A stretch of 38,421 nt of DNA from a virus. Its lineage: Duplodnaviria; Heunggongvirae; Uroviricota; Caudoviricetes. The notes beneath the pieces are model-generated. The model did no database searches and had not been told where the DNA came from. It saw nothing but the letters and a program-made list of their open reading frames with translations. Shown in pieces: positions 7,010 to 21,910 of this stretch. The first letter of the stretch is position 1; every line of letters starts with the position of its first letter. The position numbers were made by a program, and so were the translations under genes. Location: positions 1-38,421 of the IMG/VR virus record IMGVR_UViG_2703718837_000008; one strand, 5' to 3'.

Positions 7010-7429
7010 TTATGATGCGTTTTGTGCTTTCTTTTTACGGATTTCTTCGTAGATCATATTGTAATACTGTTTTTTCTCTTCAAGAGTTTTTAATAAGTTA
7101 TCCGCTTCACTTTCAGGCAGTTCGTCTAAGAGATCTAAAAAAATACGTTGTCGTGGCGTTAGAACCCTTGTTTCATAATTGGAGGCTGTGTTCGTTGATG
7201 ATGAAACGATACCATCCATCCATCCCCGGGGTAACCCAAAGGACTCTTCTATAATCTCCACCATATCATCAGCGATCCGTTTTTTTCCTTTTTTCCCCTC
7301 TGGGTACAACATTCTTGATACATAAGAAGGCTCGCGACCGATCTTTCTGGCCACGTTAACCGCTTTACCATCGCATTTCTCATCACGAATTTTGATGAGT
7401 TGTTGTCGTCTAAATTCATATTTGTCCAT
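7010..7429 (-). CDS. DicA/CI-like HTH (XRE family) repressor
   Basis: 139 aa from the internal Met at 7429 (MDKYEFRRQQLIKIRDEK...). HTH segment VNVARKIGREPSYVSRML. C-terminus (LTPRQRIFLDLLDELPESEADNLL...) resembles DicA as I recall it. Divergent from a Cro-like gene. The longer ORF-track start at 7471 would run into the operator region. Confidence 0.7.
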   Translation of the reverse strand: MDKYEFRRQQLIKIRDEKCDGKAVNVARKIGREPSYVSRMLYPEGKKGKKRIADDMVEIIEESFGLPRGWMDGIVSSSTNTASNYETRVLTPRQRIFLDLLDELPESEADNLLKTLEEKKQYYNMIYEEIRKKKAQNAS

Positions 7430-7449
7430 AGGTAAATAATAGATGCGAT

Positions 7450-7504
7450 TACCGCAAGGTAAACAACCCAAGGGTATTGACTTTTGTTTACCTGTGGGTA
7501 TTCT
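7450..7504. promoter_or_regulatory. Divergent immunity-switch control region: three TACC-N4-GGTA operators and a rightward promoter
   Basis: TACCGCAAGGTA (7450-7461), AACCCAAGGGTA (7465-7476), TACCTGTGGGTA (7489-7500). TTGACT (7477-7482)-16-TATTCT (7499-7504) reads toward the Cro-like gene, with the third operator overlapping the -10. Confidence 0.55.
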
Positions 7505-7530
7505 TTTGCTGTGTTTACTAAGGAGTAGCT

Positions 7531-7812
7531 ATGGAAGAATTAAGAATATTTCTCAATTCTCTTTCGTCAGATGAACAGCGTATGTTTGCATGTGAGTGTG
7601 GTACTAGCATCGGTTATCTAAGAAAGGCATTGAGTAAAGGTCAAATGTTAGGGGCATCGTTATGTGTCCTTATTGAGCGAGCCAGTAATGGTGAAGTTAC
7701 ACGTCAGCAACTAAGGCCTTTTGATTGGATGAAGATTTGGCCCGAGCTGGAAGATACCAAAACGTTAACACAACCACTTACTAGGAGCTTGATTCATGAA
7801 AATCAAGCATGA
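7531..7812 (+). CDS. Cro/YdaS-like HTH regulator
   Basis: 93 aa. AGGAG RBS. Motif IERASNGEVTRQQLRPFDWMKIWPEL is typical of YdaS/Cro-like prophage regulators. Divergent from the repressor. Confidence 0.65.
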   Translation: MEELRIFLNSLSSDEQRMFACECGTSIGYLRKALSKGQMLGASLCVLIERASNGEVTRQQLRPFDWMKIWPELEDTKTLTQPLTRSLIHENQA

Positions 7813-8221
7813 ACACATCCGCATGGCGATGAATGCCTGGGCGCGTCCTGATGGCGAAAAAGTTCCAGCAGCTGGAATAACCCAGGCTTATTTTGAGTTG
7901 GGTATGACGTTTCCTGAACTGTATGACGACAGCCATCCGGAAGCCCTGGCTCGCAATACCCAGAAAATTTTCCGCTGGATAGAGAAAGACACCCCTGATG
8001 CAGTTGAAAAAATTCAGGCGTTGTTACCAGCGATCGAAAAGGCAATGCCACCTTTGCTGGTGGCCAGAATGCGCAGCCACAGTTCAGCTTATTTTCGGGA
8101 GCTGGTGGAGACGCGGGAGCGATTGGTGAGAGACGCTGATGATTTTGTCGCAGTGGCAATCGCCGGTTTCAATCAGATGAACCGTGGTGGCCCGGCAGGA
8201 AATGCTGTGGCAGTACATTGA
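7796..8221 (+). CDS. YdaT-like (CII-like) protein
   Basis: 141 aa starting MKIKHEHI, which I recall as the YdaT N-terminus of Rac-type prophages. Immediately follows the YdaS-like gene with a short overlap. Confidence 0.5.
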   Translation: MKIKHEHIRMAMNAWARPDGEKVPAAGITQAYFELGMTFPELYDDSHPEALARNTQKIFRWIEKDTPDAVEKIQALLPAIEKAMPPLLVARMRSHSSAYFRELVETRERLVRDADDFVAVAIAGFNQMNRGGPAGNAVAVH

Positions 8222-8292: not shown

Positions 8293-9363
8293 ATGGCTAA
8301 CGCCTGGCTCAGATTATGGCATGACATGCCAAATGACCCTAAGTGGCGAACAATTGCCAGGGTGTCAGGGCAGCCAATTGCAACAGTGATGGCAGTGTAT
8401 ATCCACCTCCTGGTGAGCGCGTCACGAAATGTCACGCGAGGTCACATTGATGTCACGACAGAAGATTTGGCAAGTGCGCTCGACGTGACAGAAGAGGTAA
8501 TTGATTCAATTTTGCAGACGATGCAGGGGCGGGTACTTGATGGTGATTTAATCACTGGATGGGAAAAACGCCAGGTGCTTAAAGAGGACAACGGCAATAT
8601 TTCGCAAACCGCAAAATCTCCTGCAGAGCGCAAGAGGGCGCAGCGAGAGAGGGAAAGAAAGCGGGAACAAAATGGCGATTGTCACGGCGCGTCACGAAAT
8701 GTCACGCACATGTCACGACGAGTCACGACAGATAAAGATACAGATAAAGATACAGATCAAGAAGATCAAAATACTATGGTCCATGGCGTAAAAAACGCCA
8801 CGAACCAGGCAGGGGATGTTCAGGCCGTCAATCCTGGTCAGCCAGCAGGCACGACACCGGAAGCCGATTCAGCGTATGCGCTGAAAGCCGATTCGGGCGC
8901 TGTGCAGCTGGTGATGACCGCAAGGCCGGAGCAATCACACCAACTGCAGCAGCCTGAAGCCGATTCCGCCATTCAGTGGGAAGCCGATCGGGTAGTCCCG
9001 GAAAACACCGGGCAGTCTGTGGGACGAGTGGATTATCCGGATGTGTTCGAACAGGTCTGGCGGGAGTACCCGTTGCGTGCCGGGGCAAACCCGAAGAAAT
9101 CCGCTTTCAGTGCCTGGAAGGCCAGATTACGCGAGGGGGTGCCACCAGAGGCAATGCTGGATGGCGTGAGGCGTTACGCAAGATATCTGGCGGCTACCGG
9201 GAAAACGGGAACGGAATTTGTTCAGCGAGCGACGACGTTTTTTGGACCGGACCGGAATTTTGAAAACCCCTGGTTGCTCCCGGTAAGCGGTACGAACAAC
9301 CAGCGTTGCGTGAATCACATTTCTGAACCAGATACCGAAATTCCACCGGGCTTCAGGGGGTAA
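8293..9363 (+). CDS. Phage replisome organiser / replication initiation protein (iteron-binding)
   Basis: N-terminus MANAWLRLWHDMPNDPKW resembles the N-terminal phage replisome-organiser domain. C-terminal region (DYPDVFEQVWREYP...) resembles the conserved phage C-terminal replication domain. Contains clustered GTCACG iterons in its own coding sequence. GAAGAGG RBS. Confidence 0.65.
   Translation: MANAWLRLWHDMPNDPKWRTIARVSGQPIATVMAVYIHLLVSASRNVTRGHIDVTTEDLASALDVTEEVIDSILQTMQGRVLDGDLITGWEKRQVLKEDNGNISQTAKSPAERKRAQRERERKREQNGDCHGASRNVTHMSRRVTTDKDTDKDTDQEDQNTMVHGVKNATNQAGDVQAVNPGQPAGTTPEADSAYALKADSGAVQLVMTARPEQSHQLQQPEADSAIQWEADRVVPENTGQSVGRVDYPDVFEQVWREYPLRAGANPKKSAFSAWKARLREGVPPEAMLDGVRRYARYLAATGKTGTEFVQRATTFFGPDRNFENPWLLPVSGTNNQRCVNHISEPDTEIPPGFRG
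8421..8457. repeat. Iteron cluster 1: four GTCAC(G/A) repeats at 10-11 bp spacing
   Basis: GTCACG at 8421, 8431 and 8452; GTCACA at 8441. The 19-mer GCGTCACGAAATGTCACGC is shared with cluster 2. Confidence 0.6.
8681..8760. repeat. Iteron cluster 2 (five GTCACG repeats) plus AT-rich GATAAAGATACA direct repeats: probable origin of replication
   Basis: GTCACG at 8681, 8691, 8701, 8712 and 8722 (helical-turn phasing), followed by GATAAAGATACAGATAAAGATACAGATCAA. Lambda-O-like arrangement of the ori inside the initiator gene. Confidence 0.6.
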
Positions 9364-9732
9364 GTGTTGATTTCTGGTCATGAGGTAATTTTCAGGAGGA
9401 CTTGTGGCAAAAGTTTTACACAAGAAGAGCGAGAAAAAATTAAAGGGCAGGTTGTTGAACTCGTACGCCAGAGTGGGCGTGAGACGTTACGGCAACTGGA
9501 AGTCAAGACAGGTGCGACAAGATATCTGATGAGCGTTCTCGCAAGAGAGCTGGTTGTCAGCGGCGATGTATACAACTCTGGTTACGGGTTATTCCCGTCT
9601 GAACAGGCTCGTAAAGACTGGCAAAACGCCCGCAAAAAATTATCGAGGGCAAAGCTGAAGAAACCGGTTGTGGTTGATCCGGACCTTATCTGGTCATTAC
9701 CTGACGGAGAAATCCGTCGCCTTAGTCTTTGA
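9364..9732 (+). CDS. Hypothetical protein (possibly replication-associated)
   Basis: 122-aa ORF from GTG 9364, directly after the replication gene stop. No recognised motif. An alternative short frame with a strong AGGAGG RBS (GTG ~9404) exists, so the reading frame is uncertain. Confidence 0.35.
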   Translation: MLISGHEVIFRRTCGKSFTQEEREKIKGQVVELVRQSGRETLRQLEVKTGATRYLMSVLARELVVSGDVYNSGYGLFPSEQARKDWQNARKKLSRAKLKKPVVVDPDLIWSLPDGEIRRLSL

Positions 9733-9833: not shown

Positions 9834-12092
9834 ATGAAACCAGAATACTTAAGAAAAATAGAATCATTGCAACGTGAGGTTGATGATTTCCATCCAGTGC
9901 TAAGAGCGCTTCTACCACGTTTGCCGACTGTTACACATGTTGAATATAAGCAAGGACCATCAGAAAAAGGTGCTGATTTTGTCATAATTAAACGAGATGA
10001 GGCATTAGACGAGGAAATATATATTGGTGTTATTTGTAAAGTTGGAAAGATAATTCAGTCAAATAGTGAGGTTGAACGACAAATAGAAGAGTGTCAATTA
10101 TATCCACGCTTTATTTCTTCTGGCTCTAAGAACATACATTTGAATGAAATTTGGGTTATTACTAATTCATCGATCTCAAATAATGCTCAAGAAAAAATTT
10201 ACTTGAAATTCAAATCTACAAATATAAAATTTATAGAGGGTGAAAAAATATGTTCTTTAATCAGTAAATATTACCCAGAGTTTTGGGATTTCGAATCCAT
10301 TAATTATGAACAATACTTAACAGATACATTGCAAACCATAAGTGATACACCTGAAAGTTCTTTTTTTGGTAGTGTTGGCATAAATAACCTTATTGATAGA
10401 TATGTAAGCAAGGAGGATCATAAAAAACGCAGACACAGGCCGTTAAAACTGTATAGTGTTGTGAGAGCCGAGAGATTTATTTTTTTAGAGGGAACCGTTG
10501 GCTCTGGGAAAAGTACTTTGCTGAAACAGTTAATTAGAAAAATAAAAGAAGAATATTCTTACGAAAAAGACTACATCCTTCCAGTATTTTGTCAATACAA
10601 GGATGTTCTAGAAAAAAAACTTAATGTTGAAAATATAATACAAAGTGTGTTAAGTAAGTACAAAATACAACATGATGGGAATATTTTATTAATTGTTGAT
10701 TCGGTTGATGAAGTAAAGGAATCACTTGAGGAAAGGCAAAACAACTTCAGGGACATTGTAGAGAAAGTATCCAGGAATGATAAAGTTCGATTACTAGTTG
10801 CTTCAAGAATTATGGATTCTCTTCAGGACTATGAAGTTATCGATCAGATGTTTGCAAGATACTCGATAATACCACTTAGCACAGGTCAAATAATCGACTT
10901 TGTAGATAAAATCTGCAATGACATTAAAATAACAAATAAACTTAAAAATGGTATAGAAAAAACACCACTATTTAAGTTCATTCCCAGGACTCCAGTGAGC
11001 GCTATTCTTCTGGCAAGAATACTCTCTGATGAGATTAAAGAATTACCATCTACAATGACAGAACTATACTCAAAATACAGTGAGATAGTATTGGGACGAT
11101 GGGATACATCTAAGGGATTATTATCGCAAACAGAATATGATGTAATAAGTAATATATTAGTAGAAATTGCGATGTTTATGATGGATAACTCTCTAAACTG
11201 CATATCAATTTCAGAAGTGCAGGACATGTTTTTAAATTATTTGGCCAAAAGAAACTTGAATGTTGATGAGGACAAACTTTTCAAAAGACTAATTTATCGC
11301 AGTGAAGTAACAACAGTTAATGTTAGAAGTAATACGTTCTCATTTCTACACAGATCATTCATGGAGTATTTTTACGCTGAAGGACTTAGGAAGCGTGGCC
11401 TAATAGACATAAATGATAATATTTATGATATTTATTGGGCAAATAGTTATTTCTTCTATTTTGGTTTGTTACGAGACAATGAATATCTTATTGATAAAAT
11501 TAATGAACTTAAACCTAGTAACGATAAAACAAGATTTTTAAGGTTGTTTTATAACGGTTCTTTTTATTTGGCTTCATATCTAACTCCGTATAAAAAAATA
11601 ACGAGGGGAGTCCTTTTATCATATATAGATGCAGGTAAATTATATGTTGATATTCTCAAGGGAAATACCGACATCCCGCTGAAGGAATTTTCACCAGTAG
11701 CTCTTCTTTGTATTTTCACAAAGTGTTTAAGTAACAATTACGCATATGATTTTTTCAAATCTGCCTTGGAAGACTTGTCAGTTCAAATTGAACAATATGA
11801 GGAAATTGGTGAACATATTGATTATGCACGTTTCTTCATAGCATCAACACTGAATGAGCTCGGGGATAAATCCGCATTTGATAGCTTAGTGGAAAAAAAT
11901 AAATTAGGTGTTTTGATTAATTTAGGGATAACTCACGTTACAGACGACTCAGGACTACTTAGCACTACGGTTGATAAGTACCTGAAAAAATTCAATAAAA
12001 AAGTACGAAGTAACCATGATATGTCTAATTATATATCTAAGTTATATGAGGAATCTACAGGTTCCTTACGTACAAACCTGCAAATTCAATAA
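9834..12092 (+). CDS. NACHT-type STAND NTPase with N-terminal PD-(D/E)xK-like nuclease domain (bacterial NLR-like antiphage candidate)
   Basis: 752 aa. Walker A FLEGTVGSGKST (aa ~217-228). Walker B with NACHT signature ILLIVDSVDE (aa ~285-293). NACHT winged-helix motif SFLHRSFMEYFYAEG (aa ~502-516). N-terminal GADFVIIK...EIYIGVICK resembles an Mrr-like D...E.K nuclease core. Strongly AT-rich relative to the flanking phage genes, with its own promoter and a 13-bp stem hairpin after the stop. Confidence 0.7.
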   Translation: MKPEYLRKIESLQREVDDFHPVLRALLPRLPTVTHVEYKQGPSEKGADFVIIKRDEALDEEIYIGVICKVGKIIQSNSEVERQIEECQLYPRFISSGSKNIHLNEIWVITNSSISNNAQEKIYLKFKSTNIKFIEGEKICSLISKYYPEFWDFESINYEQYLTDTLQTISDTPESSFFGSVGINNLIDRYVSKEDHKKRRHRPLKLYSVVRAERFIFLEGTVGSGKSTLLKQLIRKIKEEYSYEKDYILPVFCQYKDVLEKKLNVENIIQSVLSKYKIQHDGNILLIVDSVDEVKESLEERQNNFRDIVEKVSRNDKVRLLVASRIMDSLQDYEVIDQMFARYSIIPLSTGQIIDFVDKICNDIKITNKLKNGIEKTPLFKFIPRTPVSAILLARILSDEIKELPSTMTELYSKYSEIVLGRWDTSKGLLSQTEYDVISNILVEIAMFMMDNSLNCISISEVQDMFLNYLAKRNLNVDEDKLFKRLIYRSEVTTVNVRSNTFSFLHRSFMEYFYAEGLRKRGLIDINDNIYDIYWANSYFFYFGLLRDNEYLIDKINELKPSNDKTRFLRLFYNGSFYLASYLTPYKKITRGVLLSYIDAGKLYVDILKGNTDIPLKEFSPVALLCIFTKCLSNNYAYDFFKSALEDLSVQIEQYEEIGEHIDYARFFIASTLNELGDKSAFDSLVEKNKLGVLINLGITHVTDDSGLLSTTVDKYLKKFNKKVRSNHDMSNYISKLYEESTGSLRTNLQIQ

Positions 12093-12704: not shown

Positions 12705-12917
12705 ATGAACGGCAAATCTAGGTTAGCCTCTTACGTGCCGAAAGGCAAGGAGAAGCAGGCTATGAAGCAGCAAAAGGCGATGTTAATCGCCCTGATCGTC
12801 ATCTGTTTAACCGTCATAGTGACGGCACTGGTAACGAGGAAAGACCTCTGCGAGGTACGAATCCGAACCGGCCAGACGGAGGTCGCTGTCTTCACAGCTT
12901 ACGAACCTGAGGAGTAA
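12705..12917 (+). CDS. mok-like overlapping reading frame (translational coupling frame for hok)
   Basis: 70-aa ORF in the same frame that contains the entire hok ORF, as in hok/mok loci. Confidence 0.4.
   Translation: MNGKSRLASYVPKGKEKQAMKQQKAMLIALIVICLTVIVTALVTRKDLCEVRIRTGQTEVAVFTAYEPEE
12762..12917 (+). CDS. hok: Hok/Gef family type I toxin
   Basis: 51-aa product MKQQKAMLIALIVICLTVIVTALVTRKDLCEVRIRTGQTEVAVFTAYEPEE matches the HokD/RelF sequence as I recall it. Followed by fbi-like 3' complementarity and a terminator. Confidence 0.85.
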   Translation: MKQQKAMLIALIVICLTVIVTALVTRKDLCEVRIRTGQTEVAVFTAYEPEE

Positions 12918-20486: not shown

Positions 20487-20669
20487 ATGTTTCTGATAAT
20501 TCTCGCGCCACTGGTGGGCGTGCTGGGTGCGCTTTTGCTGGCGTATGGTGCCTGGCTGATTTATCCCCCGGCGGGTTTTGTTGTTGCCGGGGTGCTGTGC
20601 CTGTTCTGGTCGTGGCTGGTGGCGCGATATCTCGATCGTACACAGCTGTCTGTCGGCGGAGGTAAATAG
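20487..20669 (+). CDS. Small hydrophobic membrane protein (hypothetical)
   Basis: 60 aa with two hydrophobic stretches, between terminase and portal. Confidence 0.35.
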
Positions 20670-21910
20670 TGTTCTTTTCGGGATTATTTCAACGAAAAAG
20701 TGACGCGCCGGTGACCACGCCAGCAGAGCTGGCGGATGCCATCGGGTTGTCCTACGACACCTATACCGGAAAGCAGATCAGCAGTCAGCGAGCCATGCGA
20801 CTGACGGCGGTTTTTTCCTGCGTCAGGGTGCTGGCAGAGTCGGTCGGGATGTTGCCCTGCAATCTGTATCACCTGAACGGCAGCCTGAAGCAGAGAGCCA
20901 CCGGCGAACGTCTGCATAAACTGATCTCCACGCATCCCAATGGCTATATGACGCCGCAGGAGTTCTGGGAGCTGGTGGTCACCTGTCTGTGCCTGAGGGG
21001 AAATTTTTACGCCTACAAAGTGAAAGCATTTGGCGAAGTGGCTGAACTGCTGCCCGTCGACCCCGGTTGTGTGGTACCGAAGCTTAACAGTAGCTGGGAA
21101 CCGGTTTACCAGGTCACATTCCCGGACGGCTCCACGGATGTACTGAGCCAGGAAGATATCTGGCATGTGCGCACGCTGACGCTGGACGGTCTGGTGGGAC
21201 TGAATCCCATCGCCTATGCCCGCGAGGCAATATCGCTGGCAGCAGCGACCGAAGAGCACGGGGCCAGACTGTTCAGCAATGGTGCGGTGACGTCCGGTGT
21301 GTTGCGTACAGAACAGACGCTGTCGGATCAGGCTTATGAGCGCCTGAAGAAAGATTTTGAGGAGCGTCACACCGGGCTTGGCAATGCTCACCGCCCGATG
21401 ATCCTTGAGATGGGGCTGGACTGGAAGTCGATGGCGCTGAACGCCGAGGACAGCCAGTTCCTGGAAACCCGCAAGTTTCAGCTTGAAGAAATCTGTCGTC
21501 TGTTCCGGGTGCCGTTGCACATGGTGCAGAACACCGATCGCGCCACCTTCAACAATATCGAAGAGCTGGGGCTGGGATTTATCAACTATTCACTGGTGCC
21601 GTATCTGACCCGCATCGAACAGCGGATCAACACCGGACTGGTACGAAAAAGTAAGCAGGGCGTTTATTACGCCAAATTTAACGCCGGGGCGTTACTGCGC
21701 GGGGATATGAAGTCCCGTTTTGAAGCCTACGCCACCGGGATCAACTGGGGAATTTACTCTCCCAATGACTGCCGCGACCTGGAAGATATGAATCCGCGTC
21801 CCGGTGGGGATGTCTATCTCACACCGATGAACATGACCACGAAACCATCCGATGGCAGTAAAGCCGGTAAGCAGAAGGATAACGCCAATGCAGACGAAAC
21901 AACGTCTTGA
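20669..21910 (+). CDS. Portal protein (HK97 family)
   Basis: 413 aa. GTG start preceded by GGAGG. Position after terminase. Confidence 0.8.
   Translation: MFFSGLFQRKSDAPVTTPAELADAIGLSYDTYTGKQISSQRAMRLTAVFSCVRVLAESVGMLPCNLYHLNGSLKQRATGERLHKLISTHPNGYMTPQEFWELVVTCLCLRGNFYAYKVKAFGEVAELLPVDPGCVVPKLNSSWEPVYQVTFPDGSTDVLSQEDIWHVRTLTLDGLVGLNPIAYAREAISLAAATEEHGARLFSNGAVTSGVLRTEQTLSDQAYERLKKDFEERHTGLGNAHRPMILEMGLDWKSMALNAEDSQFLETRKFQLEEICRLFRVPLHMVQNTDRATFNNIEELGLGFINYSLVPYLTRIEQRINTGLVRKSKQGVYYAKFNAGALLRGDMKSRFEAYATGINWGIYSPNDCRDLEDMNPRPGGDVYLTPMNMTTKPSDGSKAGKQKDNANADETTS

Follow-up and report, generated by a model that had tools for sequence, protein, structure and literature searches.

Does the gene for a phage replication initiator contain, within its own coding sequence, the origin at which its product would act? 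The question is raised by a 38,421-nucleotide (nt) stretch of DNA from a virus of the Caudoviricetes (IMG/VR record IMGVR_UViG_2703718837_000008, positions 1 to 38,421), referred to here at its full length as the window, in which one gene carries two clusters of a short direct repeat. The original prediction, made from the letters of the sequence, took these repeats for replication origin iterons embedded in a replisome organizer gene, and we followed it up computationally. We estimate a probability of about 0.8 that the region is the origin of a lambdoid prophage embedded in its own initiator gene. The core of this origin most likely consists of the downstream cluster (array II), the AT-rich tract that follows it and possibly a palindrome, with the upstream cluster (array I) as an auxiliary set of the same sites. 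The locus is most likely an uncharacterised example of the origin-in-initiator arrangement long known from lambda.

Phased repeats and an AT-rich tract in the initiator gene

The gene (Table 1) encodes a protein that matches the family phrog_3729 'replication initiation protein' end to end (E 2.7e-255) and has the NCBI name 'phage replisome organizer'. Together with a weak match to the Pfam family PF09681, this bears out its designation as a replisome organizer. At 98 % identity, the gene has counterparts in phages Tritos, Evi and vB_EcoM-606R7.

The nine GTCAC(G/A) hexamers lie where the original prediction placed them, in clusters at 8421-8457 and 8681-8727, and with the phase of 10-11 base pairs (bp) that it described. 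A tenth copy, an inverted GTCACG (8484-8489), was absent from its list; this site, on the minus strand at gene nt 193, is kept in most homologs of the GTCAC type. The 19-mer said to be shared between the clusters is real and extends to a 21-mer (8417-8437 = 8687-8707), for which the chance expectation is 0.

Over the whole window GTCACR is not over-represented (30 copies versus 35 expected), but its local clustering is extreme, with nine same-strand copies in 307 nt compared to 0.34 expected (Poisson P = 1.4e-10), and we therefore reject chance or base composition as the source of the repeats. Resampling synonymous codons for the same protein yielded 1.73 +/- 1.19 copies with a maximum of 7 in 20,000 trials, versus the nine observed. 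All three codon phases are represented among the nine direct repeats (2,0,1,0 in array I and 1,2,0,2,0 in array II), and because they occupy different phases the same pentamer encodes SR, VT, GH and CH. The only other phased pair in the window is a GTGAC pair at 20700 and 20711, 11 bp apart, inside the open reading frame (ORF) 20669-21910. This pair is probably fortuitous, since about 0.3 such pairs are expected by chance as estimated from the motif counts.

The AT-rich direct repeat reported after the second cluster consists of two exact copies of ACAGATAAAGAT at 8728-8739 and 8740-8751. It encodes part of TTDKDTDKDTDQEDQ, which is predicted to be disordered, in agreement with the double role as linker coding sequence proposed for it. 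The GC content is 0.30-0.35 over 8720-8779 and A is far above T on the top strand (AT skew +0.5). Nearly all relatives, of all three motif types described below, have an (N)AGATAAAGATA-type tract directly 3' of array II, and these tracts have a GC content of about 0.2-0.4 and a purine content of about 0.7 even within genes of about 60-68 % GC.

Looking at 39 loci, we found short palindromes to be 4-6 times commoner in the 70 nt past the AT tract than elsewhere, with stems of at least 7 in 21 % of loci after the tract compared to 3.3 % elsewhere (p = 3.5e-5). This enrichment is suggestive only, because the palindrome sequences differ between loci. In ori-lambda, too, a palindrome is present to the right of the AT-rich region. 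The general features of an iteron origin are found together at this locus: at least three helically phased direct repeats, an adjoining AT-rich tract and an initiator encoded in cis. No DnaA box was found within 8293-9363 at up to one mismatch, and the window-wide counts of such boxes correspond to chance. Internal promoters and terminators are no more numerous than in shuffled sequences, and the sole notable hairpin is the palindrome at 8777-8807.

To place the arrays on the protein, we used an AlphaFold2 model, whose mean predicted local distance difference test (pLDDT) score is 60 and which is reliable only inside folded domains. The model has an N-terminal helical domain (helices 2-11, 16-25, 29-49, 56-63 and 67-77), a basic helix (110-126), a disordered stretch (128-243) and a confident C-terminal helical domain (245-332). 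Fold searches with the N-domain gave winged-helix-like matches to the DnaD N-terminal domain (DnaD-NTD) and to Rep, while sequence searches of the PDB returned matches for the DnaT-like tail only and nothing for the N-domain profile. PF09681 aligns over its full profile, with residues 5-123 of the protein on profile positions 1-119 of 121, and among relatives it is matched at E <= 1 in 9 of 34 (best 8.4e-4); the initiator would be a distant relative of PF09681 at most. Array I encodes residues 43-55, a loop (SRNVTRGHIDVT, aa 44-55) that has low pLDDT and lies between helices, and array II encodes CHGASRNVTHMSRRVT, which together with the product of the AT tract is part of the disordered linker. 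Since they encode a low-confidence loop and a disordered linker, both arrays appear to be placed where the protein tolerates change.

Conservation of the arrays and competing explanations

The original prediction had named a lack of conservation of the repeats in homologous genes as a point on which it could fall, and on this point it stands. Scanning one genome per species, we found 52 loci, and about 28 of them, from Gamma- and Betaproteobacteria, hold the arrays at the same gene positions. Relatives have 3-5 copies of the motif in the corresponding array II. Over residues 1-138 the protein shares about 70 % identity with its counterparts in Aeromonas phage pAEv1818 and Pseudomonas phage P7869, and the genes of these two phages carry GTCAC at nt 129, 139, 149, 160, 193 (minus strand) and about 388-418, as does the window gene. 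Over residues 158-356 it shares 64 % identity with the Shigella phage POCJ13 initiator, which has the same C-domain, a different N-domain and no array; arrays are absent where the N-domain differs (L002).

Distant homologs have another core, CGAACGC or GTAACGC, at the same two places. Aligned with GTCACGC, these cores share the 3' ACGC throughout and vary in the 5' triplet. Adding further viral contigs to the species scan resulted in 93 non-redundant loci; a scan of viral contigs with array-I-less N-domains (A7) gave hits largely of the E. coli type and contributed little. The motif type agrees between the two arrays in 68 of the 69 informative loci, defined as those with at least three copies in both arrays (GTCAC 29, GAACG 33, GTAAC 6). 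The one remaining locus has a near-variant pair, and mixed motif types were never seen. Across the family, 274 of the spacings counted are 10 bp and 57 are 11 bp. Repeats and N-domain co-evolve, each of the three motif types being found in both arrays and following N-domain similarity.

We also asked which window proteins accompany the arrays in 23 GTCAC-type loci outside E. coli. The N-domain is encoded nearby in 23 of 23, and the counts for the other window proteins are 1 for the repressor, 3 for the YdaS-like protein, 0 for the YdaT-like protein, 1 for the C-domain and 0 for DUF977. Arrays that track the N-domain alone are what one would predict for an initiator and the sites to which it binds.

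It is conceivable that the arrays are operator-like regulatory sites, bound by the initiator or by some other protein of phage or host and acting in autoregulation, as a transcription block or in copy control, and that replication starts elsewhere. Array I is found within the gene's 5' third and is followed by an inverted copy, a position that suits a roadblock or autoregulation, and iteron-type initiators commonly autoregulate. The arrays track no neighbouring regulator gene, however, and a motif scan found no cluster of the GTCAC-type motif other than these two anywhere in the 38 kb prophage. In addition, the conserved AT/purine tract and palindrome after array II are hallmarks of an unwinding element and not of an operator, and the position of the repeats matches that of ori-lambda within O. 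We consider the operator explanation unlikely and continue to prefer an origin within the initiator gene.

Array I has six rather than four iterons, and is 21 nt longer, in some relatives (locus L006 at gene nt 129-181; proteins P0003, P0022 and P0057). The two extra iterons correspond to a 7-residue insertion (TCHGVSR/L) in the loop of the winged-helix-like domain, and because 21 nt equal 7 residues the number of iterons shifts in frame-preserving pairs. The 12-nt DKDT unit of the linker also varies in copy number between relatives.

Such frame-preserving steps would suit an explanation in which the repeats are a by-product, either of a selected repetitive peptide (VT/SR/CH, DKDT) or of a homology patch for module shuffling, and have no role in DNA binding. 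Array II and the DKDT tract do coincide exactly with the junction at which phages swap N- and C-domains, in a linker predicted to be disordered. Array I, on the other hand, lies inside the folded N-domain and away from the module boundary, and neither the helical phasing of 10-11 bp nor the agreement of motif type across 260 bp has a protein or recombinational rationale. We addressed the question at synonymous sites in 21 gamma- and betaproteobacterial homologs, whose loci have a GC content of about 34-69 %, and found a third-codon-position entropy of 0.14-0.20 bit within the motifs compared to 1.2-1.3 bit outside. The contrast holds also against codons of invariant amino acids (Mann-Whitney p = 1e-4 to 6e-4). 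With one pentamer read in three frames to give different peptides, and with synonymous sites frozen within the motifs only, a protein-level repeat is rejected as the source of the arrays and the by-product explanation becomes very improbable. As judged from these sequences, the ten GTCACG-type sites are two helically phased arrays maintained by selection on the DNA itself.

An action in mRNA, with GUCAC as the site of an RNA-binding regulator or as part of a structure affecting initiator translation, would account for all nine direct copies lying on the coding strand, but it is hardly credible, although disfavoured only indirectly, given the conserved inverted copy, a phasing equal to the DNA helical repeat, and an AT-rich tract and a probable winged-helix DNA-binding fold that point to duplex DNA.

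Proposed mechanism, helicase recruitment and prophage context

By analogy with lambda O/ori-lambda and SPP1 gp38/oriL, we hypothesize that rightward early transcription after induction would yield the initiator, whose N-domains would bind to the 10-11 bp repeats of array II head-to-tail, all on the same side of the double helix. Aided by transcription through the site, this assembly of protein and DNA would melt the adjacent AGATAAAGATA tract (8728-8776), and the C-terminal domain would then bring in the replicative helicase. Array I, which lies 260 bp upstream of array II, is dispensable in some relatives and encodes a sequence-tolerant loop, most likely provides auxiliary initiator sites for cooperative loading, for looping, or for control of copy number or expression.

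A more speculative proposal, which we think improbable, is that array I is self-referential. The nucleotides read by the initiator would also encode the stretch of the winged-helix-like domain (aa 43-55) that helps to set iteron specificity, perhaps coupled to direct capture of the host DnaB-DnaC by a tail mimicking DnaT. Site and reader would then change by the same mutations, which would account for the loop being the chief part of the N-domain in which the GTCACG, GTAACGC and CGAACGC dialects differ, and capture of DnaB-DnaC by such a tail would make a phage loader dispensable.

Two related loci (L039 and L139, gene nt about 362-389) combine an N-domain of the CGAACGC clade with no array I and three GTCAC in array II, and their loop has RGH in place of RGR. 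They may be an iteron-type switch caught in progress. We considered loop residue 51 (H with GTCAC, R with GAACG) as a specificity determinant and do not claim this role for it, as the association comes down to a single evolutionary event (L039/L139) and has counter-examples (L017; several residues with AACGC).

That no helicase loader gene is obvious downstream, as originally stated, is correct for the window, where we scanned the ORFs: neither a helicase nor a helicase-loader gene was found in the interval from the initiator to the Q-like antiterminator gene, nor in the remaining large ORFs that we scanned. The gene that follows the initiator in relatives is lambda-P-like in 7 loci (seven distant relatives with a PF06992 neighbour), DnaC/IstB-like in 5 and in POCJ13, a Toprim-DnaB_C primase-helicase in 5, DnaB-like in 1 and unrelated in the rest. 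The initiator's C-terminal domain changes along with the class of this next gene, a modularity that is, from these gene orders, the classical logic of lambdoid initiators.

Of the 76 near-identical modules from E. coli prophages in IMG/VR (L057-L136), about 63 have the initiator followed by DUF977 and about 12 have a DnaC-like gene and DUF1627 in between. Because about 63 of the 76 are without it, the phage DnaC-like gene is dispensable for an initiator of the window type. Tritos has the same loader-less arrangement. This phage yields virions and forms plaques on MG1655 hsdR- (PMC9928086). With no loader gene in the window phage, the host DnaB-DnaC is therefore presumably used.

The DnaT-like tail of the initiator may mediate this use of the host DnaB-DnaC. 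The last 24 residues (…NHISEPDTEIPPGFRG, 333-356) match positions 156-179 of the DnaT model NF002770 with E 0.0016 and 18.1 bits versus a cut-off of 201, and the DnaT chains 6aep, 2ru8 and 9zbt in the PDB with E 0.02-0.07. PxGF tails tend to occur where the neighbouring gene is DnaC-like (Fisher p = 0.015). A search of the window protein gave no match to PF17948, the DnaT-like single-stranded DNA-binding domain, and the protein so does not contain the full-length DnaT C-terminal domain. E. coli O157-type relatives with the same N-domain (P0057-P0119) have a full PF17948 domain instead of the tail only.

Several points weigh against our interpretation. Literature searches returned no published binding, unwinding or origin-firing data for this phage or any member of the family. 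Among the loci compared, 11 have array II without array I and 8 have none of the four pentamers tested. Homology to lambda O was tested with Pfam, hhalign and BLASTP and was not found: PF04492 (Phage_rep_O) gave no hit in the window protein at E <= 0.01, the hhalign probability for the N-domain was 0.05 %, and the only BLASTP similarity (E 0.097) lay in the low-complexity linker. The match to PF09681 scores 16.2 bits, under the gathering threshold of 23.3. As the units are short direct repeats and not palindromic iterons, the geometry proposed for the initiator-DNA complex is conjecture. For helicase recruitment without a phage loader, the DnaT-tail matches are weak (E 0.002-0.07), and the hypothesis that the tail is involved stays unsupported because the cryo-electron microscopy paper on the preprimosome defines no function for the extreme C-terminus of DnaT.

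The whole of the window makes up a complete lambdoid prophage, in which integrase and RecE-like exonuclease genes come first and are followed by a divergent immunity region, and rightward transcription from 7010..8221 would run through the origin. The large gene past the replication module encodes a protein with an NCH1 domain at its C-terminus and a weak match to an Mrr-like nuclease at its N-terminus; it belongs to no PHROG family and has only weak PADLOC matches. This gene (9834-12092) has the look of an anti-phage defence moron that was acquired by horizontal transfer and inserted just past the replication module. The place of the small hok-like ORF is taken in Tritos and vB_EcoM-606R7 by a gene annotated as HokD or host-killer. 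Beyond it are YdfU-like/HNH, RusA and Q-like genes, and the ORFs further downstream correspond to lysis, head and tail genes annotated in the related vB_EcoM-606R7.

To estimate how common the module is, we counted the initiator gene at a coverage of at least 80 % and found it in 1647 of 5426 complete E. coli genomes (about 30 %). The N-domain family comprises about 1,000-2,200 clusters at the 50 % identity level.

Table 1. Positions of the putative origin elements, the initiator gene and its domains, and neighbouring genes in the window
Feature	Coordinates	Strand	Remarks
Repressor gene	7010-7471	-	Immunity region
Promoter-like site	7477-7504	+	Such sites no commoner than chance
YdaS/Cro-like gene	7531-7812	.	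Early-right context upstream of initiator
YdaT/CII-like gene	7796-8221	.	Early-right context upstream of initiator
Initiator ('phage replisome organizer') gene	8293..9363	+	356 aa; holds the whole putative origin; ORF with upstream GAGGTG ribosome-binding site
N-terminal winged-helix-like domain, aa 1-95	8293..8577	+	Coding region; presumed iteron reader
Iteron array (cluster) I	8421..8457	+	Four direct GTCAC(G/A) copies at 8421, 8431, 8441 (GTCACA), 8452; spacing 10, 10, 11 bp
Single inverted GTCACG copy	8484-8489	-	32 nt downstream of array I; tenth site of the motif
Iteron array (cluster) II	8681..8727	+	Five direct GTCACG copies at 8681, 8691, 8701, 8712, 8722; spacing 10, 10, 11, 10 bp
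AT-rich, purine-rich tract	8728..8776	+	Presumed DNA-unwinding element; ACAGATAAAGAT x2 then ACAGATCAAGAAGATCAAAATACTA; encodes DKDTDKDTDQEDQNT
Imperfect palindrome TGGTCCATGGCGT-AAAAA-ACGCCACGAACCA	8777..8807	.	Directly after AT tract; flagged as 13-pair hairpin
C-terminal helical domain, aa 245-332	9025..9288	+	Coding region; presumed partner-recruiting module
C-terminal tail GTNNQRCVNHISEPDTEIPPGFRG	9289..9360	+	Resembles C-terminus of E. coli DnaT (profile and PDB matches)
DUF977/Ren-like gene	9364-9732	+	Not a helicase loader; PF06163 E 1.5e-14; phrog_142 'Ren-like exclusion protein'
NACHT/STAND NTPase gene	9834-12092	+	752 aa; 31 % GC versus about 52 % in flanks
Small hok-like ORF (MNGKSRLASY…)	12705-12917	+	70 aa as listed; follows NACHT gene

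Relation to known replication systems

Literature searches for the origin of this family returned only lambda, SPP1, plasmid and satellite systems, and the paper on the 'Non-lambdoid Stx phage' (Eru) makes no mention of iterons, DnaT or this module. Our results leave the accepted view of how phages initiate replication as it was. The comparative data would amount to a concrete map of the origin in a very common class of prophages from enterobacteria, Pseudomonas and betaproteobacteria, and the three cores, differing only in the 5' triplet, to a natural specificity series for DNA reading by winged-helix initiators and for drift of origin specificity. Since Tritos forms plaques on K-12, it may offer a clean genetic system for lambdoid replication with a single replication gene and the host DnaB-DnaC. 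Such sites could also explain incompatibility or exclusion between co-resident prophages, and they could serve in conditional replicons.

A close parallel in layout is lambda O with ori-lambda, where the origin sits midway along the initiator gene, a repeat array being followed by an AT/purine tract within O (PMC7466680). In the lambda record, four iterons at O nt 349-433 are followed by a tract that is AT-rich and purine-rich on the coding strand. The window has array II followed by a tract of 30-35 % GC, and since array II lies at gene nt 389-435 with the AT tract after it, the layout is that of lambda. The arrangement had been described as lambda-O-like, and this stands for the mid-gene repeats and the AT/purine tract after them (gene nt about 390-480). 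It does not extend to the protein, which is not a lambda O homolog, or to the units, which are not palindromic repeats of 18-19 bp.

Lambda O is likewise a bipartite initiator with an origin-specific N-terminal and a partner-specific C-terminal domain. In lambda-type origins two extra iterons add 13 residues in frame (PMC7466680), and iteron number varies by in-frame insertion in both systems, with two iterons per 13 residues there and per 7 residues here. A ren-like gene lies downstream in both, and some relatives of the window phage have a lambda-P-like gene beside the initiator. The two systems also differ. The lambda iterons are inverted repeats of 18-19 bp, about 20-24 bp apart and in 4-6 copies, whereas the units here are direct, 10-11 bp apart, with a core of 6-7 bp and no internal dyad. 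The second array, 260 bp upstream within the region coding for the DNA-binding domain, has no clear counterpart in ori-lambda, and the window phage has no P gene, the next gene being DUF977/Ren-like.

The original 'replisome organizer' is gp38 of SPP1. It binds to direct repeats in oriL, within its own gene and beside an AT-rich unwinding element, and it binds two discrete regions (PMC6316719). Our initiator resembles gp38/PF09681 in the full-profile alignment of the N-domain and in the name 'phage replisome organizer', and it may have a DnaD-NTD-like winged-helix fold. SPP1, in contrast, encodes the loader gp39 and the helicase gp40, neither of which is encoded by the window phage, and it infects Firmicutes instead of Proteobacteria. 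Its oriR is about 13 kb from oriL, compared to the 260 bp between the two arrays.

For the C-terminus, the parallels are DopC/DopE and the host DnaT. DopC, an O-like N-terminus fused to a DnaT C-terminal motif and encoded next to a P-like gene, was reported without iteron-like sequences (Brezellec et al. 2017, PMC5509034). The window initiator also ends in a DnaT C-terminal tail (EPDTEIPPGFRG), but its gene is full of iterons and it has the tail only, without the DnaT C-terminal domain. The host dnaT-dnaC operon (PMC13377028) has an analog in sister prophages. In these, as in E. coli dnaT-dnaC, a DnaC-like gene follows immediately after the initiator.

Two separated clusters of one short direct repeat, both cis-acting and served by one initiator, are also found in the ori/crr of satellite phage P4 and in iteron plasmids. 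The P4 alpha protein is a primase-helicase, and the P4 clusters are kilobases apart and outside the sequence coding for the DNA-binding domain of the initiator. Plasmid iterons are usually 17-22 bp long and intergenic.

Placed among these systems, the origin would work like ori-lambda and SPP1 oriL, outside the lambda O family. It departs from lambda in three respects: its short direct units, its two arrays, and a lone initiator with a DnaT-like tail.

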